From Hyalangium minutum (GTDB taxonomy: Bacteria; Myxococcota; Myxococcia; Myxococcales; Myxococcaceae): a stretch of DNA of 64,000 bases. The translations under genes and the position numbers were made by a program. The stretch is taken from NCBI RefSeq assembly GCF_000737315.1, contig NZ_JMCB01000003.1:217394-281393 (forward strand), written 5' to 3'. The notes below the pieces were generated by a model. The model did no database searches. It was not told the DNA's origin and was given only the letters and a program-made list of their open reading frames with translations. Numbering within the stretch: position 1 is the stretch's first letter; every line of letters begins with the position of its first letter. Of this stretch, positions 30,724-47,517 are shown one piece after another.

Positions 30724-33700
30724 TCCGCCGCGCTCCGCGATGGCTGTGGCTCGTGCTGGGGCTGGTGACACTGGCCACGGCGTGCGACCGGCGCTCCAGC
30801 GAGGAGCCCGCGTCCGCCGCGCCGCCCGCGCAGGCTGCTCAACAGGCACAGGCGCTGTCCGGAAGCACGTGCGACAGCGTGGCTCCCACCGGCATGGCGC
30901 CGGGGTGGAAGGTGGCGCCGATCCAGGCTGCGGGCCAGAACGTCGCGAGCACGATCTTCCCGGCGTCCGTCGGTGAGCGGGCGATCCTGATCCTGCAGGA
31001 GTCGGCGGAGGCGCTGAATCAGGAGTTCAAGACGGAGGCCTCCCTCAACGGTGTGGACTGGGTGGCCATCTCCCGGCAGAGGCCGCTGGCGGCGCGGGTG
31101 GTGCAGCTGAGTGCCTCGAACCGGCTGGAGCTGGAGACGAACGGAGGCGTGGCACGGACGTCCGTGGCGGCGCTGTCGCCGCTGCCGTGCGCGGCGGTGG
31201 AGGCACGCGTGACGCACGCGGGAGGCTCGGCCGCCACCGTGGAGACGCGCACCTTCACATGGCCCATGGGAGCAGGCCCGGCCCTGCTGGTGGTGGAGTC
31301 GGGCAGTGCGTCGCAGGTGACGGGGCGGGTGGTGCTGGGCAGCCTGACGGTGCAGGTGCCGGCCGCAGGCCAGCTCCCCGTGGTGGAGGTGGTGTCGCCG
31401 CAGGCGAGCAACACGCTGCGAGTCGAGGTGGGAGGCAGCGCGGGCGCGTGGGTCCGGGCAGTGGTGGTGGAGCCGGACATGTTGCCGCCCATCGTGAGCA
31501 TGGGGCAGCCCGCGGAGGGCGCGCAGCTGAACGCCTCGCCGGTGGAGGTCCAGGGCACCGCGGGAGCCGGGGCGGTGGCCGTGAAGGTGGGGGCGGTGGA
31601 CGCGGTGCTGTCGCAAGGCCAGTACACGGCGCAGGTGCCGCTGGTGGAGGGGCCCAACGCGCTGGTGGCCGAGGTGAGAGACCAGTGCGGCAACGTGGCG
31701 CGAGTGTGCCGGCCGGTGGTGCTGACGACGGCGCCGCCCACCGTTGTTATCGAGGGAGTTACTGACGGCCAGGTCTCGCGCGAGCCACTGCACCCCACGT
31801 GGACGGTGACGAGCAGCGGCCCGGTCACGGTGGAGGCGACGCTGGATGGCGCGCCCTTCGTCGGCGGCACGGCTGTAACGGCCGAGGGCTCGCACGAGCT
31901 GCGGGTCATGGTGCGGGACGCGGCGGGCCGGGAGGCGCAGGCGCAGGTGGGCTTCGCGATCGACACCACACCGCCGCGACTCACGCTGACAGGAGTGGAA
32001 GAGGGGGAGCGGCGCAATACTCCGGCGGTGCTCGGCTTCACGGTGGAGGAGGAGCACCCGGGCTCGGTGGAGGCCACCCTGGATGGGGCTCCCATGGCCT
32101 CGGGGGACACGGTCTCGGCGGAGGGCGCGCATGTGTGGACGGTGGCGGCCACGGACGCGGCGGGCAACCGGTCCGAGGTGCAGCGCCACTTCGTGGTGGA
32201 TGTGACGGCTCCCACGCTGGAGGTGCTCTCACCCGCGCCGGGCAGCTTCACCCAGGCGGGCTCCGTCGAGGTGGTGGTGGCGGCGGCGGATGACGGGCCG
32301 GTGGCGGGCGTGTGGCTGGGGAACGCGGAGCTGACGCTCGGCACGGACGGGAAGTACCGGAGCCTGGTGGTGTTGGAGGAGGGCAGCAACCTGCTGGTGC
32401 TGGTGGCTCGGGATGCGGCGGGCAACAGCGCGCAGAGCTCGCTGGCCGTGACGCGGGACTCCACGCCGCCCCAGCTCACCCTCACCACCCCGGCCGAGGG
32501 CGCGAAGGTGGCGGGGGACTCGGTGCAGGTGGAGGGACAGGCGCAGGACACCACGCCGCTCACGGTGCGCGTGGCGGGGATGACCGCGGCGGTCGCGGCG
32601 GATGGTCACTTCCAGCTCTCGGTGGCCGTGGCGCAGGGCCCTGTCTCCCTGGAGGTGGTGGCCACGGATGCGGCGGGGAACACCGCGCGTCTGGTGCGCG
32701 GCATCCGCGTCAACACCACGCCCCCGAGGTTGGATCTGACGGCACCGGCCTCGGGCACGGTCACCGAGGAGTCCTCCATCGAGGTGTCCGGCTTCGCGAG
32801 GGCGGCGGATCGCACGGACACGGTGCGGGTAGAGGTGGCGGGAACCGAGCACGGTGTGAGGGCGGATGGCAGCTTCTCGGTGCAGGTGCCGCTGGAGGTG
32901 GGCCTGAACACCGTGTCCGTCACGGCGGTGGATGGCTATGGCCTGCGCACCCCGCGCACCGTGCGGGTGGAGCGCCAGGGGCCTCAGGGGCCCGGTCCTG
33001 GAGATGGAGGCTCGGGAGACGGTTCGGGAGGCGGCACGGACGGAGGCTCGGGGGAAGACACCCCGGATGCAGGCAGCGGAGCGCCGGATGCGGGCTCGCC
33101 CGGTCCCGTGCCGGATGGCGGCATCCCGAGCGAGCCTCCGGTGCTGGTGCTGGCCTCGCCCCAGGAGAACAGCCTCTGGGGTGTGGAGCGGGTGTCGGTG
33201 CTGGGCCGTGTGGAGGGCGGAGACCTGCCGCTGCAGGTGACGGTGGATGGACTGCCAGCCGCGGTGACGGGGCGCCAGTTCTCCGCATCGGTGGCGCTGC
33301 CTGAAGGCTCCTCGATGCTGCACGTGCGCGCCGTGGACGCGCTGGGCCGGATCGCCGAGGTGCGGCGGCAGGTGAGGGTGGATCAGACACCGCCCTTCTT
33401 GGAAGTGACGCGGCCGGAGCAGCCGTCGACGACCGTGAGCGAATCCCCATACCTGGTGGAGGGCCTCGCGGGAGACGCGTACCTCGCGGGCGTCACGGTG
33501 AACGGGGCGCCGGTGATGGTGCTGGCCGGGCACTTCTCGTCCTCGGTGGCCCTGGTCGCGGGAGACAACACCGTGGAGGTGGAGGCGGTGGATCTCGCGG
33601 GTAACCGCTCGCGCGCCGTCCGGACCTTGCGGGTGGAAGCGCTGCCGCCTCAGCTGACCGTGCTGGAGCCGGTCGATGGCTCGGAGGCCACCGAGCCGGT

Positions 33701-36700
33701 GGTGAGGGTGACGGTGAAGGTCGAGTCCTCCGCGCCGCTCGACGAGGTGCGCATCGGCACGGGCATCGCGGCGAACCTGGGCTCGGGCCAGTACACGGCC
33801 CAGGTGCCGCTGGCGCTGGGAGAGAACGTCATCCCCGTGAGCGCGCGGGACACGCTGGGGATGACGGGCTCGGCCACCGTGCGCGTGCGCTACCGCGATC
33901 CGAGCACTGAGCCGTTGACCGTGACGGGGGTGGATCCCTCGGATCAGGCCACGGAGCTGGAGCCGGACACGCTGGTGAACGTGGCCTTCAACAAGGCCGT
34001 GAAGCCTGCGTCGGTGCGGGCGGGCTTCACGGTGAGCGTGGAAGGGCAGCCGCTGGCGGGCGGCTGGTCCGTCGCGCACGGAGCACAGATCGTCTCCTTC
34101 ATTGCGCGCGATCCGCTGCCGGAGGGCGCCACGCTGCAGGTACGGGTAGCGGGCGTGGAGCCGGTGCAGGGGCCGGGGATGCAGGGCGAGTTCCGCAGCA
34201 TGTTCACGGTGCGCCGTCCACTGACCCGGCTGCGCGGCCAGGTGGTGGACGCGCGGCGCGAGCCCGTGTCCGGCGTACGGGTGGAGGTGGAGGGCCAGGG
34301 CCTCTTCACGCGCACGGGAGCGGACGGCAACTGGGCCCTCTTTGGGGTGCAGCCGGGGCAGGTGGTGCTGCGCTACGAGGGAGGCGCCTCCTCGGAAGGG
34401 CAGGTCTTCCCCACGGTCCGCCGGCGGTTCGCCGTGGAGGCCGAGCGGGACAATGAGGAGTCCACCGTGGTGCTGACGCCCGTGGACGCCGAGTCCGCGG
34501 AGCCGGTGGATACCTCCCTGCCGCTGCACCTCACCTTTGGGGGGAGGCATGGGGCGCTGGAGGTGGACATCCCCGCGGGGGGGCTCATTCTCGAAGGAGG
34601 ATCGACGCGCGGCCTGGTGACGCTCACGCAGCTGCCGCTCCACTCGCTCCCGGTGCCCACGGAAGGCGCCTTGCGCCCGGTGGTGGTGTGGCAGCTCCAG
34701 CCCGCCGGGACGCGCCTGGTGCGGCCGGTGGTGCTCCGCCTGCCCAATCGGCTGAGTGCGCCGCCCGGCAGCCGGGCCGCGCTGTTCACGTATGATCCCG
34801 AGGCGCACCGGCTGCACATCGCGGGGCTGGCCACGCTCAGCGCGGATGGCACACAGCTCGTGTCGGACGGTGTGCTCGAGGCCGGCTCGCTGGAGTACTT
34901 CGGCTACCTGCCGCTGCCCGAGGAGTCCTCCGTCGCGCGGGCCGGGGCCGTCTCTCCCCGTGTGGCGAACCTGGGCCCGCTGCCCCGGCCACCGTCTGAC
35001 GGGCTCATCCGCCCGCTGACCCAGGGCTTCGGGCTGGATCCTGGCAGCGCGCTCGCCATCTGGGACTCCTACCAGCCCTTCATCGCTCCCGCCGCCGTCA
35101 TGGGGACGGTCCGAGGGCCTCGCGAGCAGGCGGTGGCCCTCGATCTCTCCTCGCCGAGCCTGGGCGAGTCGCGGCGGGTGGCGTTGGATTCGCAGCTGCG
35201 CTACCGGATGCCGCTCTCGGTTCAGGCCCGCTCGCTCTATCCCCTCTCGAGCAGTGGCCGGGATTCGCTCGTGCTGGCCCTCGAGGGCGTGGGCCCCGAG
35301 GGACAACGGCTGGGGCCGCCCAGCGGGGGCTCCTGGCGGCAGGAGAGCCCCCAGGGGCAGCGCGCGGAGCTGTCCACGCAGGTCGAACTCTCGCTCGGGA
35401 CCAGCTCGCTCTGGGCCACGGGCACCACGGCGCGCGGACGCAACGTACTCCGGCTGAACGCCGAGCTGTCCCTGGCGGATGGAGGCGTACCGGATGGGGG
35501 CGCGACCTCGGGATTGCTGCGCGTCCAGCGGGGGGATGGAGGCTCGGCAGGAGGGGAGGACAGTGAGGGACTGGTCCGCTTCGCGGGCATGCCTGTCCGG
35601 GTGACCGATGGCTGGCACGAAGGAGGGTCGATCTCCGGCCCGGCGGGCCGGTATGCCGCCTCGATCATCATGCTCCAGTCCTCCTGGATCCCTCCCGCGT
35701 CGGTCCTGGCCTGTGTTCGCCTGCCCATCGGATGGAACGTCCAGAGCTGGGTGGCGTGGGATGGCCGTGTCCGCACGCGCAAGGCCCCCTCCACCGCGGA
35801 GGAGTGCTCGGGCCCCTGGGAAGTCCTGGCCTGGCCTTCGCCCATCATCCCCGACATCGACGTGCTCGTGGATGTGCGGTGGTTGCACGGCAACATCACG
35901 TTCGTGGATCGGCAGGGCGAGCCGCTCCCGCCGCCGTGCAGCGACTTGGTGGTGCGCCAGGGCACCGAGGTGACCGGGCTGTCGCAAGACGCCGTGCGGA
36001 GCACGGAGGTTCACTTCTTCCGGGAGGATAATCTCTCCACCCCCATCGTCAGCTACGCCGTCGCGGATCCCGAGCAGTGTGACTCGTATCCGGGGGCCCC
36101 GCATGGCCGCTATGCCAAGGTCCGCTACGGTCCCTCCACCCTGAGCCGCGTGGCCTCGCGCCGCGACAGCCAGCGGTTGCTCCCGGGGGACCGGCTGGTG
36201 GTGTTCGCCGTCAACCATGCCACGGGCTATTCGGGCATGGAGGTCGTCACCGTTCCCTCCGTCAACCAATCCTCTCGCGCCGAGGATGGGAGCTGCCCGG
36301 CGGATGACGCCGCGGGCGGCCCGATGGCCGTGCAAGATGGGAGTCGCACGGTCTCCGTCTCTCGCTGCACGCTGCAGGATCTCGGCATCGAGGCGGATCT
36401 CAAGCTGTACCCGCCGGAGATCGACGTGCGTGTGGAGCGCCAGTCTCGGGCCGAGGGATCTTCCCAGGAGGCCCTGGAGCCCAGCCTTGTCCGCCATAAG
36501 GGCGCGGCCACGACGCGGGACAACTTCGTGAGCGTTGCCACGCACTGGCGCGTCCGGCGCCAGCCCGCGCGCTCGTGGGATCCGGGGGTGTTGCCTCCCG
36601 TGAATTCTTCCTGCGAGGGCGGGAGCCAGGCGGCTGGAAGCACCTGTGCGCCCCAGATCCTCCTGGACGAGGGCCCGCGAGGCACATGGGCGGAGCACTA

Positions 36701-39700
36701 CTGCGGGGAACTTCCCGAGCCGCGGACCCCCGAGCAGCAGGCCCTCTGCCTGAAGGATGACCGCGAGCTGGCGGAGGTTCCGGTGGGGGTACCGCCCCTG
36801 GCTGGGCGCGTGGTGCGCATCACTGGCTCGGCGGTGGAGGAGCCAGCGGTGGCGAGCTTCCACGTGGCCCCGGGCCGCTCCACGACGACCGTGCAGACAG
36901 CGCTGCGGCGAGTGGAGCGGGACGGGCGCGAGGTGGTGCTCAACAACCTGACGCGTGCCTACTACTACGTGCAGGTGGTGGGGCACCCCGTGCTCCCGCG
37001 GGATCGCAACAGCGATGGCACGCTGGATCCCTCGGAGGAGAACGCGCCGCCGCCCGACTTCGAGGATGATGAGGACGCCCCGGGGATTCCCGAGGGAGTC
37101 GTCACGCTGAAGAGCGTCTACCGGAGCGTGGAGCCCGAGGGGCGCATCGAGCGCTACGATCGAGCGCTCGAGCACGAGTTCCGGGTGATGGAAGTGGGCT
37201 CCTCCCGGGTCACGGCACGGACGGAGCGGGGCGAGGAGCGCCCGCTGCCCCAGCCGGGGCAGCCTCCGTCGTCTGCGGCCGCCAGCCCGGAGGACGTGGC
37301 CTATCAGTTCCTGCTCAATCTGCTGGAGCCAGAAGATCCGGGGCGGACGGGGCCGCCGAGCAGCCAGTACGTGCTGCGGCTGGGCACGGACTCCTTCGGC
37401 ATCGAGTGCCCCATCGAGCTGAACGCCTCGGCGGGCACGCTGCGTGGCACGTGCGAGGGCGAGTACCTGCCGGAGGTGCTGAGCGCGGGGGATGTGCTCT
37501 ACCTCGAGGTGTACTTGCGCGGTAACGCGGAGAACGTGCTGTACCGCTTCAACTTCGACGGTCTGTCCATGCGGGAGGACTACCTGGGGGCCTCCAGCCG
37601 GTTCACCGCCCACCGCGCGGTGGAGCAGCAGAATGGCAAGCCCGTGGAGGATCGGCCGATCTCCCGGCTGAACGAGGCGCACTTCTTCCTCTCGCCTCAC
37701 GAGCTCAGCTCAGGACGGATCCGGCTCTGCACCAACGCGGAGTGCTCGGGCGACGGGGCGGTCATCAAGGACGCCACCGTCTTGTGGACGGCGGCGGGCT
37801 CCTACGCGGTGAGCGAGCAGGCGACGGGCAGTGCTCCGGGGCGGCTGGTCCAGGAGGTCACGTCAGGCGCAGGGAACGCGCGCCACCTTCGGCTGGGACT
37901 GCCTGCCTCGGTGACGGCGATGCCGGGGATCGCGGCGGCGGGCGCGGGGATCTTCCTGGTCAAGGACAGCGAGTCTCCGCCACGAGCGCGGCAGGTGGAG
38001 CGCCTGGGAACGCCGAAGGGACGCTTCCAGGGGCTGAACGCGCAGGCGCCGGGCCAGGAGGCCGTGGCGGGCATCAATGTGGCGGATCTGCACCTGGCCC
38101 TGACGCACACGGACTTCGCGGTGCCGCAGCTCGCGGGAGAGGTCTCCTTCTCCAGGACCTATGCCAACCAGAACGATCTGCCCTCGCCCATGGGCGTGGG
38201 CTGGAGGCACGAGCTGGACGGCTTCGTGCTCGAGGAGAGCCTCGGCCGCTATGTCGTGAACCTGGGTGGGCAGGCCTGGGGCTTCATCCGGTGCACCACC
38301 GTGGATGAGGAAGCGCAGACCGCCAGCGGGTGCATGACGGACAAGACCCACGGCATGTCGCTGAAGGTTGACAGCGAGGGCGTCCAGCTCACCACGGAGC
38401 AGGGGAGTGTGTACCGGTTCAACCGGCCGGCGGTGAAGCGGGACCAGGAGGGCCGGCGCAAGTGGCTGCTGACCAAGTTCCACGATGGCCATGGCCGAGG
38501 CGAGCAGGACGGGTGGACGCACCTCACCTATGCCGAGGGCACCAACCGGCTCACGCAAGCGAAGCGCACGCCTGGGGAGCTGTCGCTGGAGCTCAAGTAC
38601 TGCGAGGACTTCTCCCGCGAGGACTGCGATGGCGTGGCGCCGGACGCGCCTGGCAACCTCAAGTTCCTGGCGCGCAGCGAGGGCTTCAAGCTGCTGAAGG
38701 GCGTGGTTCTCAAGAACAGCCAGGGCCAGGAGCTGCACATCGTGCGCTTCAAGCACGACCGGTGGGGCAACCTGCTGGAGGCCGAGCGCACCACGGATCC
38801 GCCCACGCAGAAGTGGAAGTACACCTACGCGCCCATTGCCGATGACGTGCCGTCCATGATGGCCTGGCGTGCCATCAATGAGCTGTCCGAGGCTCGCCTC
38901 GAGGTGGCTGGTCATCCCCAGTGGGTCGCCACCTACGGGCGCGGCGGCGCCGAGTGCTATGCGCACCTCGAGGCCTTCGAGTGTGTGAGCTCGGTGACGC
39001 AGACAGGCTTCATGGGCAACGTCCTTCAGGTGCAGGGCGAGGCGGGCCATCGCCAGCTCAAGCTCCCCACGGGGAACTCCGCGGAGGTGTCACTCAATGA
39101 GTATGGGAACGTCACCTCCTCGGCGTCGGAGGGGCAGGCGGCGCGGCGGCTGACGTGGCCCAGCTCCCAGCGCGGGGGCGAGGTGCGGCTGGAGAAGTCA
39201 GTCTCTCCGAGCGGCCGGACCCTGCGCTATGGCACGGATCACCAGCTGCGCCTGGACGAGGTGAAGCTGGAGGGGAGCTCGGACGTGGTGGGGCTCGAAG
39301 CGGGGGCGCTCGTCTCCGTGTTGGCACGCGATGCCCGGGGCTTGCCTACCTCGGGGAAGCTGTCCACGGCCAATGGTCCGGCCGAGTGGTCCATGCCCCG
39401 CTCTCAGTCGGGGGACGTGCTGGGCCTCTCACTGGGGGGCACGCAGCTCTTCTCGCGGGTCACGGACGAGGAGGGCCGGATCACCTCGGAGCGGGATGCG
39501 CTGGGCAATACGACCACGTTCACGTTTGGCGCGTTGGGGTTGCCTGTCAGGATCCAGGTGTCCTCGGACTCCGCGACGTCGGGGCTCGTCCGCTACACGC
39601 TGGTGCTGGAGTACGACGCCTATGGGCGTCTGATCCGCCGCTTCAATGAGACGACGGGCGAAGCGGAGTCCTGGCGTTACGACGGCCAGGGCAACATGCT

Positions 39701-42700
39701 CGAGCACACGCTCACGGGGGAGCCGTCCGAACGGTGGACGTACACCTATACGTACGGCGATCAGCGGCTCACCGTGGTGGAGCGCCTGGAAGGCACGGCC
39801 TACACCCGCACCGCCCTCTTCGAGCAGGGGCTGCTGAAGAGCGAGCAGCTCAGCTACGGCACGGGCAACGCGTCACGTGCCTATGAGTACGAGGGCGGGC
39901 GGCTCAAGAAGAAGACAGACGAGCTGTCAGTCACCTGGGAATACACCTACGACAGCGCGGGCCGGCTGAAGGTGGTGAAAGCGAATGGCCGGACCGTGGA
40001 GTCCTACGGGCTGGATGAGGACGGCATCCTCATCTCCACCACGGACCGCGAAGGGCACACCACCCAGATCGGCAACGACTCGCTGGGGAGACCCGTCTCG
40101 TGGACCTATGAGGATGGGTACAAGGAGGAGGTGCGGCGGGATGCCCAGGGCGCCATCGTCTGGGAGAAGAAAATGTCTCCCGGCGCGGACAGAGCCCACG
40201 TCTTCGCTCAAGAGGTGGACGCGCTCGGACAGGTTCTGAGCCGCCGGAGCGCGGAAAATGGGAGCGGAGTGGAGATCGTCTCCACCTATGACGCCGCGGG
40301 GAGAGTGCGGACGCGAGAGGATCGGGGCAGGGGCCTGAACGAGTCCTTCGAGTATGGTGACGTGCTCGGAAGGCTGACGCGCTATCAGCGGACCGTGGCG
40401 TCCGCCGCGGGGAGCCAGAACTGGATCGAGACCCGTCAATACGTGGATGAAGGGGGCCGCACGGAGCTCCGCATCCTGCGCCAGATCGACACGGGTTTAG
40501 GGCCGCGGCAAGAGAACCAGGTCCTGGTGCTGGATGCGCTGGGGCGGGTGCTGAAGGACCAGCGTCTGGGTGCGGGGGTCTTCGAGTACACCTACGACGC
40601 GCGAGGCAACGTGCTGGAGCGTCGGCACTCCGTGCTGGGAACCACGTCGTATACCTACGACGGGTTGGGGAACCTGCTGTCGATGACGGAGCCGGGGGGC
40701 GTCACCACCACGTACACGGTGGATGCGGCAGGCCGGGTGCTCACGCAGGAGGGGCCTCACGATCAGGAGCGGTGGACGTTCACCTACGATCTGTTCGACC
40801 GGCCGCTGACGCAGGTGCTGGCGCAGGCCGGGAGCTCGCCGCAGGCTGCGTGGAGCTTCGAGTATCCGGGGAATGGGATCGTCATTGAGACGGATCCTCT
40901 GAGTATCGCGACGACCCGGCGTTTCAACTCGCGCGAGCTGCTGCTCTCGGAGGAGCGAGGGAGCCAGACGGCGGAGTACGCCTACGATGGAACGTGGCCT
41001 CGCCTGCACCTCATCTCCCATGAAGGTTCGGAGCGGAAGCTGACGCGGAGCTTCGATGACCTCGGGCGGCCGCTCCAGCAGGTGGAGTTCTGGAAACAGG
41101 GGGACCACTCCTATACGTACAGCACGACCACGGCTTGGACGGGCAGGCGCGGGACTCGCCAGGAGCGGTGGGAGGCCACGGACGCGAGCGTCCGGACGCT
41201 CACGGCGACGATCCGGGTGGACGGGCTGGGGAACCTCATCGAGCAGGAGCAGGGGGGCCTGACGGACGCTTGGGCCTACGATGCGGCCGGACTGTTGGCA
41301 CGTGAGGCACTGGCGGGGCGTCCGGAAAAGCGCTTCTTCTACGAGCAGGATCGGCTCGTCCGGATGGAGAACGGCTCGGAGACGACGCTGTACGAGTATG
41401 ACGCCGCGGGCCGGCAGTGGAAGGAGACGGATCCTTCGGGGCGCGAGCGCACGCGGGTCTACAACGCACAGGGCCTGGTGGCGAGCGAGCGCTTCGGAGC
41501 AGGGGAGACGCTGGAGTCCGCGTACACTTACGATCGAGGCGGGGGCCTCCGGACGCTGACGCGTGGCGGGGCACAGTGGAACTTCACGCATGGGCCTCGG
41601 GGGGAACTCCAGGCCGTCGAACTTCCGGGCGGGCTGGGGACCTTCACCTATCAATACGATGCCTTGCTGCAGCTCAAGGGGGTGACGCCTCCAGAGGGCG
41701 GGGGAGCAGCGGCACAGACCTTCGCGTATGACAACTGGGGCCGGCAGCTGCGCCGGACCCGAGGCTCCAGCGTCTGGTCCACGGCCTGGCAGGGCGGGTT
41801 GAGCACCACGAGCGACCCGAATGGCGACGTGGTGGAGCAGCTCTACGACGGCCGCGGCCGCGTCGTGCGTGAGCGCTTCGCTCCCGGGAACAGCAGCCGG
41901 CCCTTCCATGATCTGACAGCGGTGACGTACGCCTATGACGGGCTCGACCAGCTGCTGTTGGCGCAGGAGAGCCGCATCTCGGGAGCGGTCTCCAATGTGT
42001 ATGACTATGACGGGCGGAGCCGGCTGATCTCGATGCGGCGCGGCAGCGAGGAGATCTCATACACATACACGGAGAGCGGGCAGAAGCGGACGGTCACGTC
42101 TCCGTCCGGCACGTTGCGCTACGAATACGACGCGCAGGATCGGGTGCGGCGCATCGAGAGCAGCCAGGGGCCGGTGGTGGCGGTGGGCTGGGAGCCGGGA
42201 GGTCTGCTCTCGGAGGTCAGTGGCAACGGGGTGGTGGAGCGGTACGCGTATTGGGGCCATGGGCTCATCCGCTCCATCGCTTCGCAGTGGGACGGCCCCT
42301 CGGCGGGCACGCTGCGGTACGAGTACGGCTACGATGTGCGCGGCAACCGCCTGGAAGAGCGCTACACGGCACCGGGGGCCACGGCGTTCGAGGTGACGCA
42401 ATTCGGGTACGACGCGGCGGACCGGCTGACCGGGGTGCGCTACCCCACAGGCGAGGCCGAACTCTACCTCCTGGCAGCTGACGGCTCGCGCCTGGAGGAG
42501 AAGCACCTGCAGGGGTACTCAGGGGGACTGACTCCCCAGGCGCTGGCCAACGCCACGAATGCCACCCAGCACTGGCGGTACGCGTATGACACCGCGGGAG
42601 GGCTGCAACGCATTGATGACGTGTTGACGGGGGGCGTGGAAGCCCAGGTCACCACGGACGCGGGAGGCCGCGTCGTCGCGGAGATGCGAGGTGGCACCAC

Positions 42701-44768
42701 GCGGCAGTATGGCTGGGACGCAGGAGGGCGGCTCGCTTCGACCAAGCGGATCACCGCGCAGGAGACGGTCGAAGCCTCATATGCGTATGGCTTTGACGGA
42801 CTGCGGCGGACTCGGACCGTGAACGGAGTGAGCACCCGGTATGTGTGGGGTGCGAACGAAGAGCTGCTCGAAGAAGGGCCGGCTGTGGGAAGTCGGCTGT
42901 TGTATGCCCAGGCAGGCTTCGGAGCGGTGGCGGCGGGAGGAGAGCGGCTGCTGCGGGATGCGCTGGGCAGTGTCGTGGGGCGCGTGGGTCCGTCCACGGA
43001 GCTGTCTCGCTATGGCGCGTGGGGCGCACTCCGGCAGGGAGCGCCGCCCCAGGGCATGGAACCGTCCCTGGCCTACGCGGGGCAATCTCTCGACAGCGAA
43101 ACAGGGCTGAGCTACGCGCAGCAGCGTTGGTACAGCTCGGAGACCGGGCGTTTCCTCTCGGAGGATCCCCTGGGAGCGGCGGCGTACCTCTCGACCCCGA
43201 CCGAGCTGAACCCCTGGCTCTATGCGAGGTCCAATCCCCTGACGTACCTGGATCCCTCGGGTTTGTGGTCCTGGTCTCAGGCTGGAGTGGGGCTGGCCAG
43301 AGCTGGCAGGAAAGCCTGGCATGAAACGGCCAATGCTTTCTCGTGGGCCGCTCGTCCTCTGAACGGCGCGTTCGGAGTGTCCTCGGGACACTACGACAAG
43401 AAGGGACGATGGAGGCTTCGGGATACAGGCACCTTCAAAGAGGAGGCGAAGAAGCAGCTCAAGCAGATCAAGGAGGTCGCGGAGTACGTGAAGGACCACC
43501 CGGTGGAGACGGTGACTGGGCTGGTGGTGGAGCCGGCGAAGGCGATCGGTACCGGGATTGCGGCCTGTGTCGTCGGCGCGACGACGCAGGGCGTGGTGGG
43601 CGACGAGGCGAGCCGTGACTGTGGCGAGATGCTCCCGAAGGCGATCGGATCGGTAGCGGGCACTTTCTCCGGGGCAGGCGCGGCGATCCGGACCGCAGGA
43701 CGCGTCCGGCGTGCCGCGGCAGATATGCGTACGGCCATGAGGAGGAGCGTCTCGGCCGCTGATGACATGGCCAGGACGAGGCTGGGCCCGCAGCGCGGAT
43801 GGCCTGACGAGGCCCCGAAGCCCGCGAGGGCCGGCGCCAATGACTGCGCGGGTGGGGTCTGCCAACGCCCAGGACAATGCTTCGTGGCGGGCACTCCCGT
43901 CCTGACCCAGGAAGGTCTCAAGCCCATTGAGCAGATTGTCGAAGGGGAACTGGTCTGGTCACGTAACGAGGAGACGGGCCAATCGGATTGGCGGCCCGTG
44001 GTGCGGACGTTCGTGACGCCGGACCAGCCAGTGCTGAGACTGGAGCTGACGGACGAGGCCGGTCAGCGCACCGTGCTGGGAGTGACTGGGGAGCACCCGT
44101 TCTGGGTGAAAGACCTGGGATGGGTGGGAGCGTCGTCGCTGCTCCCCGGTCAGCAGGTGGCCAGCGCGCACGGAGGATGGCTCAAGGTGGGGGCCGCGAC
44201 GTGGGAGCAGGCGCGCGCCACCGTCTTCAACTTCGAAGTGGAGGAATTCCACACCTACTTCGTGGGCGACGTCGGCGCGTGGGTCCACAACAGCTGTCAG
44301 CAGCCATGGTTGTTCGCGGCGGGACAGGGGGATGTGTACACGCTCCTGGAGAAATTCAGGAAGACTCACACGTTAGGGAAAGCGGAGACCTTTGCGCTGG
44401 CAATGCTGGAGAGTGGTGAGCGTGCATTTGGAATCAACTCGGGTTTGTTCAAGGGCAGGGATTCCCGGATTCATGGCTTTGAAATGTTGAGGGAGCACGG
44501 GTTGCTGAAGAAAGCCACCATATACAGTCAGGAGCCCTTCCTGCTGCACGCAGAGGCTCTGGCGGTCATTCGTCTGTGGGAGCGGCTGCAGGGCAAAGAC
44601 CTTTCACTGATTCGGCTGTACGTCGACAACCCAACCTGCAAGCTGTGTCTGAGCGGCCTTCCCAGACTGCAAGTGGCGCTTGGGATCAAACGCTTGGAGA
44701 TTTATGGCCCGGGAACCATTCACATCAGCAAGCCGTCTCTCCACCCCATTGACCTTCTCAAGAATTGA
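30720..44768 (+). CDS. RHS/YD-repeat polymorphic toxin lipoprotein (4,682 aa). Layout: signal/lipobox, Ig-like domains, carboxypeptidase-regulatory-like plug, about 1,200 aa of unknown function, YD-repeat shell, RHS core (DPSGL), glycine-zipper linker, Hint domain, C-terminal deaminase-like toxin.
   Basis: The ATG at 30720 overlaps the PPIase TGA (ATGA) and is preceded by GGGGGAGG. The N-terminus MIRRAPRWLWLVLGLVTLATACD is a lipoprotein signal. Many YD repeats are present (YTYDARGNVLER, YEYDAAGRQW, YAYDGLDQL...). The RHS-associated core reads RWYSSETGRFLSEDPLG...NPWLYARSNPLTYLDPSGL. It ends at TGA 44766-44768. Confidence 0.9.
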   Translation: MIRRAPRWLWLVLGLVTLATACDRRSSEEPASAAPPAQAAQQAQALSGSTCDSVAPTGMAPGWKVAPIQAAGQNVASTIFPASVGERAILILQESAEALNQEFKTEASLNGVDWVAISRQRPLAARVVQLSASNRLELETNGGVARTSVAALSPLPCAAVEARVTHAGGSAATVETRTFTWPMGAGPALLVVESGSASQVTGRVVLGSLTVQVPAAGQLPVVEVVSPQASNTLRVEVGGSAGAWVRAVVVEPDMLPPIVSMGQPAEGAQLNASPVEVQGTAGAGAVAVKVGAVDAVLSQGQYTAQVPLVEGPNALVAEVRDQCGNVARVCRPVVLTTAPPTVVIEGVTDGQVSREPLHPTWTVTSSGPVTVEATLDGAPFVGGTAVTAEGSHELRVMVRDAAGREAQAQVGFAIDTTPPRLTLTGVEEGERRNTPAVLGFTVEEEHPGSVEATLDGAPMASGDTVSAEGAHVWTVAATDAAGNRSEVQRHFVVDVTAPTLEVLSPAPGSFTQAGSVEVVVAAADDGPVAGVWLGNAELTLGTDGKYRSLVVLEEGSNLLVLVARDAAGNSAQSSLAVTRDSTPPQLTLTTPAEGAKVAGDSVQVEGQAQDTTPLTVRVAGMTAAVAADGHFQLSVAVAQGPVSLEVVATDAAGNTARLVRGIRVNTTPPRLDLTAPASGTVTEESSIEVSGFARAADRTDTVRVEVAGTEHGVRADGSFSVQVPLEVGLNTVSVTAVDGYGLRTPRTVRVERQGPQGPGPGDGGSGDGSGGGTDGGSGEDTPDAGSGAPDAGSPGPVPDGGIPSEPPVLVLASPQENSLWGVERVSVLGRVEGGDLPLQVTVDGLPAAVTGRQFSASVALPEGSSMLHVRAVDALGRIAEVRRQVRVDQTPPFLEVTRPEQPSTTVSESPYLVEGLAGDAYLAGVTVNGAPVMVLAGHFSSSVALVAGDNTVEVEAVDLAGNRSRAVRTLRVEALPPQLTVLEPVDGSEATEPVVRVTVKVESSAPLDEVRIGTGIAANLGSGQYTAQVPLALGENVIPVSARDTLGMTGSATVRVRYRDPSTEPLTVTGVDPSDQATELEPDTLVNVAFNKAVKPASVRAGFTVSVEGQPLAGGWSVAHGAQIVSFIARDPLPEGATLQVRVAGVEPVQGPGMQGEFRSMFTVRRPLTRLRGQVVDARREPVSGVRVEVEGQGLFTRTGADGNWALFGVQPGQVVLRYEGGASSEGQVFPTVRRRFAVEAERDNEESTVVLTPVDAESAEPVDTSLPLHLTFGGRHGALEVDIPAGGLILEGGSTRGLVTLTQLPLHSLPVPTEGALRPVVVWQLQPAGTRLVRPVVLRLPNRLSAPPGSRAALFTYDPEAHRLHIAGLATLSADGTQLVSDGVLEAGSLEYFGYLPLPEESSVARAGAVSPRVANLGPLPRPPSDGLIRPLTQGFGLDPGSALAIWDSYQPFIAPAAVMGTVRGPREQAVALDLSSPSLGESRRVALDSQLRYRMPLSVQARSLYPLSSSGRDSLVLALEGVGPEGQRLGPPSGGSWRQESPQGQRAELSTQVELSLGTSSLWATGTTARGRNVLRLNAELSLADGGVPDGGATSGLLRVQRGDGGSAGGEDSEGLVRFAGMPVRVTDGWHEGGSISGPAGRYAASIIMLQSSWIPPASVLACVRLPIGWNVQSWVAWDGRVRTRKAPSTAEECSGPWEVLAWPSPIIPDIDVLVDVRWLHGNITFVDRQGEPLPPPCSDLVVRQGTEVTGLSQDAVRSTEVHFFREDNLSTPIVSYAVADPEQCDSYPGAPHGRYAKVRYGPSTLSRVASRRDSQRLLPGDRLVVFAVNHATGYSGMEVVTVPSVNQSSRAEDGSCPADDAAGGPMAVQDGSRTVSVSRCTLQDLGIEADLKLYPPEIDVRVERQSRAEGSSQEALEPSLVRHKGAATTRDNFVSVATHWRVRRQPARSWDPGVLPPVNSSCEGGSQAAGSTCAPQILLDEGPRGTWAEHYCGELPEPRTPEQQALCLKDDRELAEVPVGVPPLAGRVVRITGSAVEEPAVASFHVAPGRSTTTVQTALRRVERDGREVVLNNLTRAYYYVQVVGHPVLPRDRNSDGTLDPSEENAPPPDFEDDEDAPGIPEGVVTLKSVYRSVEPEGRIERYDRALEHEFRVMEVGSSRVTARTERGEERPLPQPGQPPSSAAASPEDVAYQFLLNLLEPEDPGRTGPPSSQYVLRLGTDSFGIECPIELNASAGTLRGTCEGEYLPEVLSAGDVLYLEVYLRGNAENVLYRFNFDGLSMREDYLGASSRFTAHRAVEQQNGKPVEDRPISRLNEAHFFLSPHELSSGRIRLCTNAECSGDGAVIKDATVLWTAAGSYAVSEQATGSAPGRLVQEVTSGAGNARHLRLGLPASVTAMPGIAAAGAGIFLVKDSESPPRARQVERLGTPKGRFQGLNAQAPGQEAVAGINVADLHLALTHTDFAVPQLAGEVSFSRTYANQNDLPSPMGVGWRHELDGFVLEESLGRYVVNLGGQAWGFIRCTTVDEEAQTASGCMTDKTHGMSLKVDSEGVQLTTEQGSVYRFNRPAVKRDQEGRRKWLLTKFHDGHGRGEQDGWTHLTYAEGTNRLTQAKRTPGELSLELKYCEDFSREDCDGVAPDAPGNLKFLARSEGFKLLKGVVLKNSQGQELHIVRFKHDRWGNLLEAERTTDPPTQKWKYTYAPIADDVPSMMAWRAINELSEARLEVAGHPQWVATYGRGGAECYAHLEAFECVSSVTQTGFMGNVLQVQGEAGHRQLKLPTGNSAEVSLNEYGNVTSSASEGQAARRLTWPSSQRGGEVRLEKSVSPSGRTLRYGTDHQLRLDEVKLEGSSDVVGLEAGALVSVLARDARGLPTSGKLSTANGPAEWSMPRSQSGDVLGLSLGGTQLFSRVTDEEGRITSERDALGNTTTFTFGALGLPVRIQVSSDSATSGLVRYTLVLEYDAYGRLIRRFNETTGEAESWRYDGQGNMLEHTLTGEPSERWTYTYTYGDQRLTVVERLEGTAYTRTALFEQGLLKSEQLSYGTGNASRAYEYEGGRLKKKTDELSVTWEYTYDSAGRLKVVKANGRTVESYGLDEDGILISTTDREGHTTQIGNDSLGRPVSWTYEDGYKEEVRRDAQGAIVWEKKMSPGADRAHVFAQEVDALGQVLSRRSAENGSGVEIVSTYDAAGRVRTREDRGRGLNESFEYGDVLGRLTRYQRTVASAAGSQNWIETRQYVDEGGRTELRILRQIDTGLGPRQENQVLVLDALGRVLKDQRLGAGVFEYTYDARGNVLERRHSVLGTTSYTYDGLGNLLSMTEPGGVTTTYTVDAAGRVLTQEGPHDQERWTFTYDLFDRPLTQVLAQAGSSPQAAWSFEYPGNGIVIETDPLSIATTRRFNSRELLLSEERGSQTAEYAYDGTWPRLHLISHEGSERKLTRSFDDLGRPLQQVEFWKQGDHSYTYSTTTAWTGRRGTRQERWEATDASVRTLTATIRVDGLGNLIEQEQGGLTDAWAYDAAGLLAREALAGRPEKRFFYEQDRLVRMENGSETTLYEYDAAGRQWKETDPSGRERTRVYNAQGLVASERFGAGETLESAYTYDRGGGLRTLTRGGAQWNFTHGPRGELQAVELPGGLGTFTYQYDALLQLKGVTPPEGGGAAAQTFAYDNWGRQLRRTRGSSVWSTAWQGGLSTTSDPNGDVVEQLYDGRGRVVRERFAPGNSSRPFHDLTAVTYAYDGLDQLLLAQESRISGAVSNVYDYDGRSRLISMRRGSEEISYTYTESGQKRTVTSPSGTLRYEYDAQDRVRRIESSQGPVVAVGWEPGGLLSEVSGNGVVERYAYWGHGLIRSIASQWDGPSAGTLRYEYGYDVRGNRLEERYTAPGATAFEVTQFGYDAADRLTGVRYPTGEAELYLLAADGSRLEEKHLQGYSGGLTPQALANATNATQHWRYAYDTAGGLQRIDDVLTGGVEAQVTTDAGGRVVAEMRGGTTRQYGWDAGGRLASTKRITAQETVEASYAYGFDGLRRTRTVNGVSTRYVWGANEELLEEGPAVGSRLLYAQAGFGAVAAGGERLLRDALGSVVGRVGPSTELSRYGAWGALRQGAPPQGMEPSLAYAGQSLDSETGLSYAQQRWYSSETGRFLSEDPLGAAAYLSTPTELNPWLYARSNPLTYLDPSGLWSWSQAGVGLARAGRKAWHETANAFSWAARPLNGAFGVSSGHYDKKGRWRLRDTGTFKEEAKKQLKQIKEVAEYVKDHPVETVTGLVVEPAKAIGTGIAACVVGATTQGVVGDEASRDCGEMLPKAIGSVAGTFSGAGAAIRTAGRVRRAAADMRTAMRRSVSAADDMARTRLGPQRGWPDEAPKPARAGANDCAGGVCQRPGQCFVAGTPVLTQEGLKPIEQIVEGELVWSRNEETGQSDWRPVVRTFVTPDQPVLRLELTDEAGQRTVLGVTGEHPFWVKDLGWVGASSLLPGQQVASAHGGWLKVGAATWEQARATVFNFEVEEFHTYFVGDVGAWVHNSCQQPWLFAAGQGDVYTLLEKFRKTHTLGKAETFALAMLESGERAFGINSGLFKGRDSRIHGFEMLREHGLLKKATIYSQEPFLLHAEALAVIRLWERLQGKDLSLIRLYVDNPTCKLCLSGLPRLQVALGIKRLEIYGPGTIHISKPSLHPIDLLKN
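43878..44297 (+). other. Hint (Hedgehog/intein-like, pre-toxin HINT) domain inside the RHS protein.
   Basis: It starts CFVAGTPVLTQEGLKPIEQIV and ends VGDVGAWVHNSC. This is the canonical Cys-1 ... His-Asn-(Cys/Ser) intein/Hint boundary arrangement, about 140 aa long. Confidence 0.7.
44298..44765 (+). other. C-terminal toxin domain of the RHS protein; candidate nucleic-acid deaminase (CDA fold).
   Basis: LLHAEALAV (HAE at 44547-44555) is followed about 27 aa later by NPTCKLC (PCxxC at 44631-44648). This is the zinc-binding H[AC]E ... PCxxC signature of the cytidine/nucleotide deaminase superfamily. It sits at the extreme C-terminus after RHS core and Hint, the typical toxin position. Confidence 0.6.
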
Positions 44769-44780
44769 CCCGGCATATAG

Positions 44781-46247
44781 CTATTGCGCCTGCGGATTCT
44801 GAGTCGTGGGCGGGCGCGCTCGTTCCCAAGCAGGGTCGTAGCACTCCTCCTGCCACTGGTAGGTATCGTCGCTGCATGGCGGTCTCTTGTCGGCCACGCG
44901 CACCCAGCAGCCGCCATGAATGATTTTCTCCCAGTCTCGCTTGCACGGGGGGCGGCGCTGGCCCGGGAGCGGTTGCTTGGGCATGTCCAGGGAGATGGAT
45001 CTGGCCTCAGAGGGAATCGATTGAACTTCCATCCGAGTGGTGAGCGCATCGTCTCCCAATCCGCGGGTACCGGCATCTGGCTCCATGCCCGCATCCAGCG
45101 CTTCAGCACGCGCCGTCTCAGACGGCTTTGCGCTCCACTCGGGAGCCATCCAGCAGGGCCCCACCACCGCCAGAGACATCGTGAGCAGCGCGAGGAGATT
45201 CCTCCAAGGGACGGGCCGAACTTGCTGCCTCGCCTGGAGAGTTCCTGCTTTGTGCTCAGTAGCTTTGGCTGGGGCCGTCTTCGCATCGACGGGCCTCGCG
45301 GGCCCGGCTTGAGTCTGTACCGCAGGCTTCACTGAAGCCCAGAGAGGAACATCCGCTGCGGAACCTAGATGCTCCGCCGAGGTTTCCGCTGCTTGTGCCA
45401 ACTCACTTGCCGTCCCGCGAGCCTCAGGCTCCGCCGCGAGCAGCCGCTCCACCAGCGCCGAGAGCTCAGGCACCACTCGGGGGTTGAGTTCATGCGTGCA
45501 TTGGCGTCGCGCAACTCCACCCTGGATTTGTTTCTTGAGGTCTTCAGGCTCCGTGCCAGGAGGGGGATAGATCCGAGTCAATAACCGGTACAGCGTCACG
45601 CCCAGCGCATAGAGATCGTCCGCCGGGGTGGCGTGGTAGCGCGCTCCCGGCGTGCTCCAGTGTTGCCACTCGAAGCGTAGCGCCTCGGGGCTGCGGTACT
45701 CAGGCGTGTTGGGAGGCAGCACCCGATGGGTGAGTGGGGGAGCGCCCTTCCACGTGCCCGAACCAAAATCCGTGAGCACCGCCCGGCCCTCGGGCTCCAC
45801 AAGAATGTTGTCGCCCTTCAGGTCGCGGTGCAGGCATTCCCCGCGGTGCAACACCTCCAACCCCCATGCCAGCTGGGCCACCACCCGGAGCACTTCGCGG
45901 CTGGTGGGAGTGTGCATCCGCGCCCACTCGTACAGCCGCTGGCCCCGGATCCACTCCATCACCACATAGGGATGCCGGACTCCAGGCTCGGCCTCCCACC
46001 AACCTTGGTCGATGAGTCGAGGCACGGCCGGGTGGCGGGTGCGTCTGAGCAACTCCACCTCCCGTTCGAAGCGCGGGTCATGAGGGAACACCGCCATCTT
46101 CAGTGCCACGGGCGGGGAGCCCGGGTCGTCGGCGCGCCGGGCGCGGAACACGGCGCCGTAGCTGCCCCGGCCGGCATAGCCCTCGATGCGCCAGGGGCCG
46201 ACCAGATCTCCGATGTTCAGCGAGTCAGGTGTCCTCGTGCCCGTCAT
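44781..46247 (-). CDS. Membrane-anchored Ser/Thr protein kinase (Hanks type) with a C-terminal Cys-rich extracytoplasmic domain.
   Basis: Kinase motifs are present: GRGSYGAVF...ALK (gly-loop and VAIK-like), HRDLKGDNILV (catalytic loop), DFGSG, PEYRSPE (APE-like). A TM helix LLALLTMSLAVVGPCW is followed by a 5-Cys tail. Confidence 0.9.
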   Translation of the reverse strand: MTGTRTPDSLNIGDLVGPWRIEGYAGRGSYGAVFRARRADDPGSPPVALKMAVFPHDPRFEREVELLRRTRHPAVPRLIDQGWWEAEPGVRHPYVVMEWIRGQRLYEWARMHTPTSREVLRVVAQLAWGLEVLHRGECLHRDLKGDNILVEPEGRAVLTDFGSGTWKGAPPLTHRVLPPNTPEYRSPEALRFEWQHWSTPGARYHATPADDLYALGVTLYRLLTRIYPPPGTEPEDLKKQIQGGVARRQCTHELNPRVVPELSALVERLLAAEPEARGTASELAQAAETSAEHLGSAADVPLWASVKPAVQTQAGPARPVDAKTAPAKATEHKAGTLQARQQVRPVPWRNLLALLTMSLAVVGPCWMAPEWSAKPSETARAEALDAGMEPDAGTRGLGDDALTTRMEVQSIPSEARSISLDMPKQPLPGQRRPPCKRDWEKIIHGGCWVRVADKRPPCSDDTYQWQEECYDPAWERARPPTTQNPQAQ

Positions 46248-46302
46248 GGCACCGGAGACTACCCAAGGGGTCGCTCGCCGTCATGCCGCTCTTTCAGGTA
46301 GG

Positions 46303-47517
46303 ATGGCGGCGATGGAGAATCTCCCGAGAGAGACGGAGCGTCTCCGGCCGTGGACGGTTCACAGGCGTCTCGCTCTGGCAACCGCTTGGCTCGGGAGTTG
46401 CTTGAGGCCGGGCGGTATGACGGGACTGCACGACCGATTCTTCCGCTACCTCTTCAACCACACCGCGCGCACCGAGGCTTTGCTGCGGCACAACCTGCCC
46501 GCGTTCCTCATGGCCGAGGTGGATTGGCCGTCGCTGCGGCGAGAGTCCGGCACGCTGGTCGACGGCGAGCGCGAGACTCGCAAGGACCTGCTCTTCTCCG
46601 CCCGCTGTCTCCAGTCCGCACCGGAGGAGCCTCCGCACTTCTTTCTCATCGAGCATCAATCCTCGGTGGACCCGTGGATGGCACTGCGGATGCACGACTA
46701 CGCTTGGCGTCTCATCCAGCACTGGCGAGAGCAGCACCCCCAGAGCCGATGGATTCCCGAGGTGACGCCCCTGGTGGTGTACCCCCGGCAAGGTCGGACG
46801 TGGTCAGCGCCCCTGCGGCTGGGTGACCACTATCTGGTGCGAGCGCGCGCGGACAAAGAGGGGCTGCCTTGGATTTTGCGTTCTGGGTACTGGATGGACG
46901 CCGTCTCGAACGAGCAGGAGGCACGGGCTCACGGGGGACCACCGCTGGTTTCTCTGGGATTGCTGGTGCTCAGCTTCGCGGGTACGCGGCAATTGGCGAG
47001 GAGGTTGCCGCACTGGTGCGATCTGTTTGCCCAGGTGTACGCGACAGATGGTCCCCAAACGCTCTATCGCATGGTGCGCTATGTGCACCATCTGGGGGAC
47101 GAGGAGGCCGTTGCGGCAATTCGGCGCGTGCTACATTCCATTATGGAGTCCACAAGGGCGGAGGCGTTCATGCGAACCATGGCAGAGGTGCTCAAAGAGC
47201 GGGGACGCCGCGAGGGGTGGATCGAGGGGAAGGCAGAAGGGAAGGCCGAGGGGAAGGCCGAGGGGAAGGCCGAGGGGAAGGCCGAGGGGAAGGCCGAGGG
47301 GAAGGCCGAGGGGAAGGCCGAGGGGCTCGCCGAGGGAGAGGCCAAGGGCTTGGTCAAGGCTCTCCTCCGCTTGTTAGCGGCACGAGGCCTACGTGTCGAT
47401 GAGGCCTCCCAGGAGCGCATCCAGAATTGCGGCGATGTCGCCACACTGGAGCGCTGGCTCGACCGGGCTCTGAACGCTACGCGGCTCACCGACGTCCTGG
47501 ACGGCCCCGCGCAGTAA
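46303..47517 (+). CDS. Rpn-family (YhgA-like, Transposase_31) PD-(D/E)XK recombination-promoting nuclease/putative transposase with a C-terminal DUF4351-like domain and an internal (EGKA)n repeat.
   Basis: FFLIEHQSSVDPWMALRMHDYAWRLIQHW matches the hallmark LIEHQS...MAFRLL.Y motif of E. coli RpnA-E/YhgA. The N-terminal H-D-x-x-F-(R/K) motif HDRFFRYLF is present. The C-terminus LVKALLRLLAARGLRVDEASQERIQNCGDVATLERWL is DUF4351-like. The start was chosen at the first ATG (46303, MAAMENL) that does not overlap the divergent kinase start. Confidence 0.85.
   Translation: MAAMENLPRETERLRPWTVHRRLALATAWLGSCLRPGGMTGLHDRFFRYLFNHTARTEALLRHNLPAFLMAEVDWPSLRRESGTLVDGERETRKDLLFSARCLQSAPEEPPHFFLIEHQSSVDPWMALRMHDYAWRLIQHWREQHPQSRWIPEVTPLVVYPRQGRTWSAPLRLGDHYLVRARADKEGLPWILRSGYWMDAVSNEQEARAHGGPPLVSLGLLVLSFAGTRQLARRLPHWCDLFAQVYATDGPQTLYRMVRYVHHLGDEEAVAAIRRVLHSIMESTRAEAFMRTMAEVLKERGRREGWIEGKAEGKAEGKAEGKAEGKAEGKAEGKAEGKAEGLAEGEAKGLVKALLRLLAARGLRVDEASQERIQNCGDVATLERWLDRALNATRLTDVLDGPAQ
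47224..47343 (+). repeat. In-frame 12-nt tandem repeat GAGGGGAAGGCC: 8 near-perfect copies plus 2 degenerate copies, encoding (EGKA)8-EGLA-EGEA inside the Rpn-like gene.
   Basis: Read directly: gaggggaaggca gaagggaaggcc (gaggggaaggcc)x6 gaggggctcgcc gagggagaggcc. Confidence 0.9.

Follow-up and report, generated by a model that had tools for sequence, protein, structure and literature searches.

Introduction

The MafB19-like clade of bacterial toxin deaminases was described in 2011 and is recognized by an Asn where strand 2 ends, an HxE (not CxE) motif in helix 2, a Val where strand 3 ends, a +xxCxxC motif (+, a basic residue) in helix 3, and a Gly at the start of strand 4 (Iyer 2011, PMC3239186). 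Its partners include type II, type V, and type VI secretion systems (T2SS, T5SS, and T6SS), MafB-N secretion, RHS or haemagglutinin repeats, and HINT peptidases, and the associated immunity proteins are of the SUFU or SUKH type (Iyer 2011, PMC3239186). An RHS protein that continues into a HINT domain and a MafB19 deaminase is an already published, textbook arrangement (Iyer 2011), and enzymes carrying the MafB19 name were included in an activity screen in 2023. Bacterial toxin deaminases are raw material for base editors and for enzymatic methylation sequencing, and a divergent, folded member is a possible reagent. Here we analyze such a candidate domain at the C-terminus of a giant RHS protein encoded on a 64,000-nucleotide stretch of the Hyalangium minutum genome (contig NZ_JMCB01000003.1, positions 217,394 to 281,393), which we refer to as the window and number from its first nucleotide.

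The domain (hereafter, the tail) comprises the C-terminal 156 residues encoded by a single open reading frame (ORF) on the plus strand. We consider it very probable that the tail is a deaminase-fold toxin tip of the MafB19 clade. Taken as a whole, our best explanation, in which the tail is a divergent MafB19-like member within the C-terminal-hairpin division of the zinc-dependent deaminase superfamily, is probable. The locus adds to this clade a rare sub-branch, the replacement of an otherwise invariant basic residue near the predicted zinc position, and the absence of an immunity gene immediately downstream.

Results and discussion

Homology of the tail to MafB19-like deaminases

An exhaustive phmmer (HMMER) search of the tail against 1.84 billion cluster representatives (E ≤ 1e-3) returned 61 matches, 55 of which were true C-terminal domains. 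These 55 relatives align over tail residues ~25-140 and form the very C-terminal end of proteins that are 94-2,862 amino acids long, with best E-values of 2.6e-25, 2e-13 (P0002), and 9.4e-11 (P0003). A single cluster representative, P0001, is more than 50% identical to the tail (53%). The other six matches (P0004, P0022, P0032, P0044, P0051, and P0060) were multi-stretch repeat proteins, several with WD40-like tails, and were dropped as spurious. Aligning 38 relatives with the tail (39 members, alignment A1), we found that all 39 match the Pfam profile PF14437 (MafB19-deam; gathering cut-off, 27 bits), with a best E-value of 3.8e-21. This cut-off was exceeded by 12 of the 14 full-length relatives scanned, and both P0002 (29.8 bits) and P0003 (38.5 bits) lie above it. 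The N-terminal parts of the relatives carry PT-HINT, eCIS_core, and cadherin or immunoglobulin-like (Ig-like) arrays, i.e., typical toxin-delivery contexts.

The residues expected of a zinc-dependent deaminase are conserved throughout this family. H84-A85-E86 (44547-44555, plus strand) provides a predicted zinc ligand and the predicted catalytic proton-shuttle Glu at the N-terminus of a modeled helix (residues 85-97), and C114-K-L-C117 (44637-44648) supplies the other two predicted zinc ligands at the start of a second such helix (residues 115-128). The initial annotation of this DNA, made from the sequence alone, had pointed to HAE, to PTCKLC (44631-44648), and to a spacing of 27 residues; the translation confirmed both motifs and placed exactly 27 residues between E86 and C114. 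It had also equated the second motif with the PCxxC of the superfamily; the CxxC is indeed present, but in the form P-T-C-x-x-C rather than the canonical P-C-x-x-C, and the family as a whole has D-R-x-T-C-x-x-C at this site. HAE is the sole H[AC]E and CKLC the sole CxxC across the 4,682-amino-acid protein, and an H[AC]E-x(20-40)-CxxC pair appeared in none of 2,000 whole-protein shuffles and none of 10,000 shuffles of the tail.

Conservation across alignment A1 extends beyond these ligands. H84, E86, C114, and C117 are found in 38 of the 38 relatives and A85 in 37; together with G45 and D110, the four former residues are invariant in the alignment, and the near-invariant R21, N47, A85, and V109 are all kept in the tail. 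At position 90, the tail has Val where the relatives have Leu. The family consensus reads GTVA...GxNS...LxHAEAxAL...YVDRxTCxxC...LPxL...LGI, relative to which the tail has a 7-residue insertion in the turn between strands 4 and 5. Five of the six positions of the published MafB19 signature (Iyer 2011) are present in the tail. Asn47 (44436-44438), within the GxN motif, is shared with 36 of the 38 relatives and stands directly behind modeled strand 42-46; Val109 (35 of 38) closes modeled strand 104-109; and Gly129 (34 of 38) lies three residues ahead of modeled strand 132-136. The exception is the basic residue of +xxCxxC, in place of which the tail has Asn111 (44628-44630).

An AlphaFold2 model built on alignment A1 is consistent with this placement (mean predicted local distance difference test score, pLDDT, 83.9; predicted template-modeling score, 0.81). 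It contains, in order, a helix (residues 10-23), two strands (34-38 and 42-46, the latter followed by N47), an insert helix (56-66), a helix that bears H84 and E86 at a break at residue 84 (80-97), the strand ending in V109 (104-109), the helix starting at C114 and C117 (115-128), a strand (132-136), and a short strand (151-152) behind a low-confidence turn (141-147, pLDDT below 50). No helix separates the last two strands, and the tail has just 20 residues past strand 4, compared with 10-15 in the relatives. In the model, strands 4 and 5 are thus predicted to be joined by a turn and to lack a helix 4, which is the arrangement seen in the C-terminal-hairpin division. We regard the deaminase core fold as certain, because the top 50 Foldseek matches of this model are all deaminases, albeit weak matches (best E 1.3e-3; template-modeling score, TM, ≤ 0.48). 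The structure prediction that the initial annotation had proposed as a check accordingly yielded a deaminase core in which HAE and CxxC each stand at the N-terminal end of a helix, and its suggestion of a zinc-deaminase toxin domain is supported by the ~55 related C-terminal domains, the four invariant residues, and the modeled fold.

Searches of other types gave few matches. Queried singly, the tail retrieved nothing from a word-indexed protein search, and the family alignment retrieved five proteins with uninformative names. The tail had no match in NCBIfam and none by tblastn against plasmids, and contigs from genomes and metagenomes, when scanned, yielded no close relatives. Three candidates were rejected as chance matches: L007 (Pigmentiphaga), which falls inside an unrelated 445-amino-acid ORF, and L008 and L009, which match a back-translated ALGIKRLEIY pattern. 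A sequence search of the PDB with the single tail gave a spurious match of ~35 residues to thyroid autoantigen chain 1jjr_A; the family profile gave weak matches to dCMP, tRNA, and cytidine deaminases that span both motifs, although no match of this profile was decisive.

Among described systems, the tail most resembles MafB19-like proteins and PF14437 members, with which it shares homology to members above the cut-off, the signature residues, RHS and HINT partners, and a C-terminal position; it differs from them by its score of 22.4 bits, Asn111, the insertion between strands 4 and 5, and the lack of an adjacent immunity gene. Identity falls to 10-14% with DddA, the T6SS double-stranded DNA cytosine deaminase of Burkholderia cenocepacia (SCP1.201/DddA-like), and with DddB/BaDTF3, and among the 20 families listed, the DddA-like profile (SCP1.201, PF14428) had no match to any of the 39 members of the alignment. 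DddA is a T6SS-delivered toxin that the adjacent DddI neutralizes, whereas the toxin described here would rely, judging from its translation, on a Sec signal and RHS delivery, and it has no adjacent immunity gene. Identity is likewise 10-14% with SsdA, the T6SS single-stranded DNA cytosine deaminase of Pseudomonas syringae, and with plant DYW RNA-editing deaminases; structural similarity by Foldseek stays at TM ≤ 0.48, and by sequence the tail is in neither family. For DYW (PF14432) in particular, the tail shows no profile match and lacks both a C-terminal D-Y-W motif and a PPR tract.

Architecture of the RHS protein

The tail is encoded at 44298-44765 (plus strand), with a TGA stop codon at 44766-44768, and forms the C-terminus of an uninterrupted ORF (30720-44768) that was identified from the ORF list, its translation, and Pfam as an RHS polymorphic toxin of 4,682 amino acids. 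Looking up the exact product gave no record for this protein. Its translation starts with MIRRAPRWLWLVLGLVTLATAC, which on inspection by eye resembles a Sec or lipoprotein signal, so that an N-terminal signal peptide (MIRRAPRWLWLVLGLVTLATA, 30720-30785) followed by Cys22 is probable. An array of Ig-like domains with a CarboxypepD_reg domain covers at least residues 584-1220 (32469-34379; Glucodextran_B, E 6.9e-73 over seven stretches; Big_13, E 3.5e-19; Big_7; Big_5; and CarboxypepD_reg) and presumably forms a surface stalk or an adhesin part. Residues ~1300-2450 (~34620-38090, plus strand), ~1,150 amino acids in all, had no Pfam match.

The RHS shell (38094-43265) includes a DUF6531 plug (E 1e-6, residues 2459-2503), RHS/YD repeats (RHS_repeat, E 1.3e-46 over 13 stretches), and a core end that reads NPLTYLDPSGL (residues 4172-4182; DPSGL, residues 4178-4182, at 43251-43265), and we counted 15 YDxxG motifs in the protein. 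Repeats, a PxxxxDPxGL core end, and a variable C-terminal tip, which together define RHS/YD-repeat toxins, are therefore all present. A linker of ~204 amino acids without a Pfam match (43266-43877) leads to a pre-toxin HINT domain (43878-44291), which extends from Cys4387 (CFVAGTPV) to His-Asn4524 followed by Ser-Cys, as delimited by Pfam (PT-HINT, E 6e-23, residues 4394-4525, plus Hint_2) and by boundary motifs, with VHN at the domain end. That the tail stands behind an RHS core and a Hint domain, as first read from the sequence, was upheld by RHS_repeat, PT-HINT, and DPSGL, and this placement puts the tail at the exchangeable-tip position of polymorphic toxins. The fraction of G+C at third codon positions (GC3) is 0.69 in the tip and 0.86 over the whole ORF, which fits a laterally swapped polymorphic tip. 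The linker between RHS core and HINT contains Gly/Ala-rich hydrophobic stretches, e.g., GLVVEPAKAIGTGIAACVVGATTQGVV; that it acts as a membrane-entry segment is speculation.

Compared with the Sec-dependent RHS/YD-repeat toxins assigned to the "T2SS" class (Iyer 2011), the protein has the same signal peptide, DPxGL-ended shell, and variable tip, and it likewise has no PAAR, VgrG, or MafB-N domain. It differs from them in its exceptional length (4,682 amino acids), in the ~1,200 amino acids of Ig-like and ~1,150 amino acids of unassigned sequence ahead of the RHS region, and in the position of its gene directly behind a peptidyl-prolyl isomerase gene and a 9,938-amino-acid ORF of Ig/TIG repeats.

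Proposed mechanism and substrate

These features suggest a scheme in which the signal peptide with Cys22 would export the RHS protein and the observed Ig-like arrays would display it on the cell surface. The RHS repeats would enclose the C-terminal region as a shell, from which the tip may be released by autoproteolysis at DPSGL and at the pre-toxin HINT domain (Cys4387...His-Asn4524); these motifs are present, and cleavage at them is proposed by analogy with known Rhs/Tc and Hint domains. The freed domain of ~156 amino acids would then bind zinc through H84, C114, and C117, and E86 would act as the proton shuttle in the hydrolytic deamination of a base in the target cell.

The likeliest substrate is cytosine in DNA, conversion of which to uracil would lead to mutagenesis and repair-driven damage. 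This is the least secure step of the scheme, and its sole basis is the deamination of DNA cytosines that screens detected for enzymes assigned to MafB19. A screen of 175 enzymes placed MafB19 among five bacterial families with DNA deaminase activity and found that it tends to prefer a C followed by a G (bioRxiv 10.1101/2023.06.29.547047), and a structure-clustering study reported deamination of cytidine in single-stranded DNA for the PF14437 clade. On this analysis, we would put the chance that the tail is an active DNA cytosine deaminase at about even or marginally better.

Contrary observations and alternative explanations

Several observations weigh against this interpretation. The PF14437 score of the tail itself (22.4 bits, E 1.2e-4) lies below the 27-bit cut-off, and the match is confined to residues 81-128, i.e., the HAE...CxxC core, at profile positions 49-101 of 142; the closest relative, P0001, is also sub-threshold (22.6 bits). 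The Pfam comparison that had been suggested as a check returned a deaminase match, although not one above the cut-off. Position 111 is Arg in 36 and Lys in 2 of the 38 relatives and Asn in the tail, a substitution that could reduce or alter activity and that lowers, without cancelling, membership by homology, the signature residue being descriptive. For the predicted fold, there is no close solved structure. As for the substrate, the PF14437 hit alone leaves it unfixed, because the Pfam profile is broad and heterogeneous: it also catches phage dCMP deaminases, and the structure-clustering study splits the PF14437 clade into two structural groups. The 175-enzyme screen, moreover, was based on the profile of Iyer and colleagues, and according to the authors of the screen that profile differs from the Pfam one (bioRxiv 10.1101/2023.06.29.547047). 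Finally, all seven relatives for which contigs were read (P0001, P0002, P0005, P0006, P0012, P0013, and P0031) have a same-strand ORF beginning 8-47 nucleotides past the toxin stop, and no homologue of these putative immunity genes was found here, either at the canonical site or in the six-frame translation of the 64-kb window (tblastn and hidden Markov model searches; best E 0.22, 1.9, and 7.3).

How far do these points favor other explanations? The initial annotation had seen no similarity to a named clade and had raised the possibility of a new deaminase toxin family without sequence kinship to any of them. Word-indexed, NCBIfam, and PDB searches with the single sequence gave no meaningful match, the tail is under the Pfam cut-off, one relative only (P0001) exceeds 50% identity, and contig scans of genomes and metagenomes returned no close relatives, all of which would be expected of such a family. 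However, two of the phmmer matches of the tail (2e-13 and 9.4e-11) score above the PF14437 cut-off, as do 12 of the 14 full-length relatives scanned; the profile is matched by 38 of the 38 aligned relatives, and five of the six MafB19 signature positions (Iyer 2011) are present, so that a new family is largely refuted and, in our estimate, very improbable. MafB19-like was itself one of the clades given as examples in that annotation. Still further from the data is the notion that HAE and CxxC are a chance pair, or that the tail is a non-deaminase CxxC metal or redox domain of the HMA or glutaredoxin type. A heavy-metal-binding protein does rank among the top PDB matches of the family profile (E 0.0065), as do glutaredoxins (E 0.03-0.13), but these proteins align around the CxxC only, whereas the dCMP, tRNA, and cytidine deaminases in the same list align over both motifs. 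Fold searches return deaminases and not ferredoxin-like HMA or thioredoxin folds, the pair was absent from all 12,000 shuffles, and every member of the family keeps the H, E, C, and C. We consider this reading refuted by conservation, fold searches, and shuffles, and its residual probability negligible.

Alternatives that retain a MafB19 fold deserve more weight. The tail might be an active deaminase of this fold with a substrate other than DNA cytosine, namely RNA or tRNA (C-to-U or A-to-I) or a free nucleotide, and the heterogeneity of PF14437 noted above leaves room for it. Against this, the screened MafB19-classed enzymes acted on DNA cytosines, the domain stops ~20 residues past strand 4 without the helix 4 of TadA/ADAR-type adenosine deaminases, and a deaminase of the nucleotide pool would be unusual as the payload of an RHS toxin; we regard a substrate of this kind as somewhat unlikely. 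It is unlikely, too, that the tip is decaying or attenuated, with an inactive or weak deaminase that needs no neighboring immunity gene. Such decay would account for the lack of an immunity gene at the canonical site and in the 64 kb, where seven of seven relatives have a small ORF, and for the unique change to Asn at a position that is basic in 38 of 38 relatives, and the region of low GC3, which contains a YhgA-like transposase gene, suggests local rearrangement. Yet the four catalytic and zinc residues are intact along with G45, N47, V109, and D110, the 14-kb ORF is uninterrupted, the model is confident, and immunity genes can reside in another part of the genome. Rather improbable, in our view, is a fully active toxin without an adjacent immunity gene in which Asn111 marks a different substrate or sequence-context specificity in the tail and one metagenomic relative; the producer would then be protected as the toxin is exported, enclosed by the RHS shell, and aimed at non-kin prey. 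If true, the tail and the subclade it forms with this relative would be a distinct candidate for the mining of base-editor or sequencing enzymes. Our preferred explanation remains the divergent MafB19-like toxin tip.

Putative immunity genes and the downstream neighborhood

The ORFs that follow the toxin gene in the relatives encode 117-145 amino acids, apart from one of 58 amino acids that is cut by the contig end. Six of these small downstream genes, for which DNA was at hand, were located at 3122-3475 of L001, 7540-7968 of L002, 4519-4953 of L003, 11349-11783 of L004, 11597-11770 of L005, and 7862-8299 of L006, and their products are homologous to one another (blastp E 1e-5 to 1e-42). All have a W/Y-x-x-G-S/N-G-D/G motif, and their resemblance to Imm1 is marginal, one of them being a sub-threshold match to this family (PF14430, E 0.0011). 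This small family is probably the cognate immunity family of the deaminase sub-clade. L006 also contains, downstream of the P0031 gene and the putative immunity gene that accompanies it, what looks like an orphan toxin-tip and immunity cassette: another ORF (8421-9766), which matches Hint faintly, and behind it an ORF of 94 amino acids.

In the window, the site that the immunity gene occupies in the relatives is reduced to a 12-nucleotide gap (44769-44780) between the toxin stop and the stop of a convergent Ser/Thr kinase gene (44781-46247, minus strand; Pkinase, E 2.5e-31). The C-terminal 203 amino acids of the kinase, which lie across the would-be immunity site, have homologues (E 1.7e-41 to 2.4e-15), among them a protein with a kinase domain and one from Stigmatella erecta, and because of these homologues the minus strand is taken as the coding strand past the toxin. 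An ORF on the plus strand (44784-45335, 183 amino acids, TTG start, 16 nucleotides past the stop) was rejected as an immunity gene: it has no Pfam match, is Arg-rich, and runs codon-for-codon antisense to the kinase C-terminal region. The missing neighbor poses a modest, testable question, with three possible answers: the immunity gene may be encoded elsewhere in the genome, export may suffice for self-protection, or the tip may be attenuated, perhaps through Asn111. A transmembrane segment is predicted in the kinase, whose C-terminal domain is rich in Cys.

Genomic surroundings

G+C content in the window is ~65-73%, which, taken with the Stigmatella erecta homologue of the kinase C-terminal part, points to a myxobacterial source of this DNA. 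GC3 is low from 44298 to 47517, being 0.69 in the toxin tip, 0.74 in the kinase gene, and 0.78 in a YhgA/Transposase_31-like gene (46186-47517, plus strand; E 1.7e-22), and reaches at least 0.9 beyond 47.5 kb, so that 44298-47517 may be a variable or acquired segment. The YhgA/Transposase_31-like gene contains a 12-nucleotide tandem repeat of 10.5 copies (47223-47348) that encodes (EGKA)n.

Upstream, an ORF of 9,938 amino acids (41-29857, plus strand) carries Big_7, TIG, Big_5, LVIVD, and CopC-like repeats, and its product is presumably a giant surface adhesin. Between this ORF and the RHS gene stands a gene for a parvulin-type peptidyl-prolyl isomerase (29830-30723, plus strand; Rotamase, E 1.3e-18), whose stop overlaps the RHS start codon by four nucleotides (30720-30723). 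The arrangement suggests a single operon, in which the isomerase is perhaps a dedicated folding helper. The C-terminal ~1,000 residues of the 9,938-amino-acid product consist of repeated Cys/Asp-rich modules of the form DxDxDG...DPxC.

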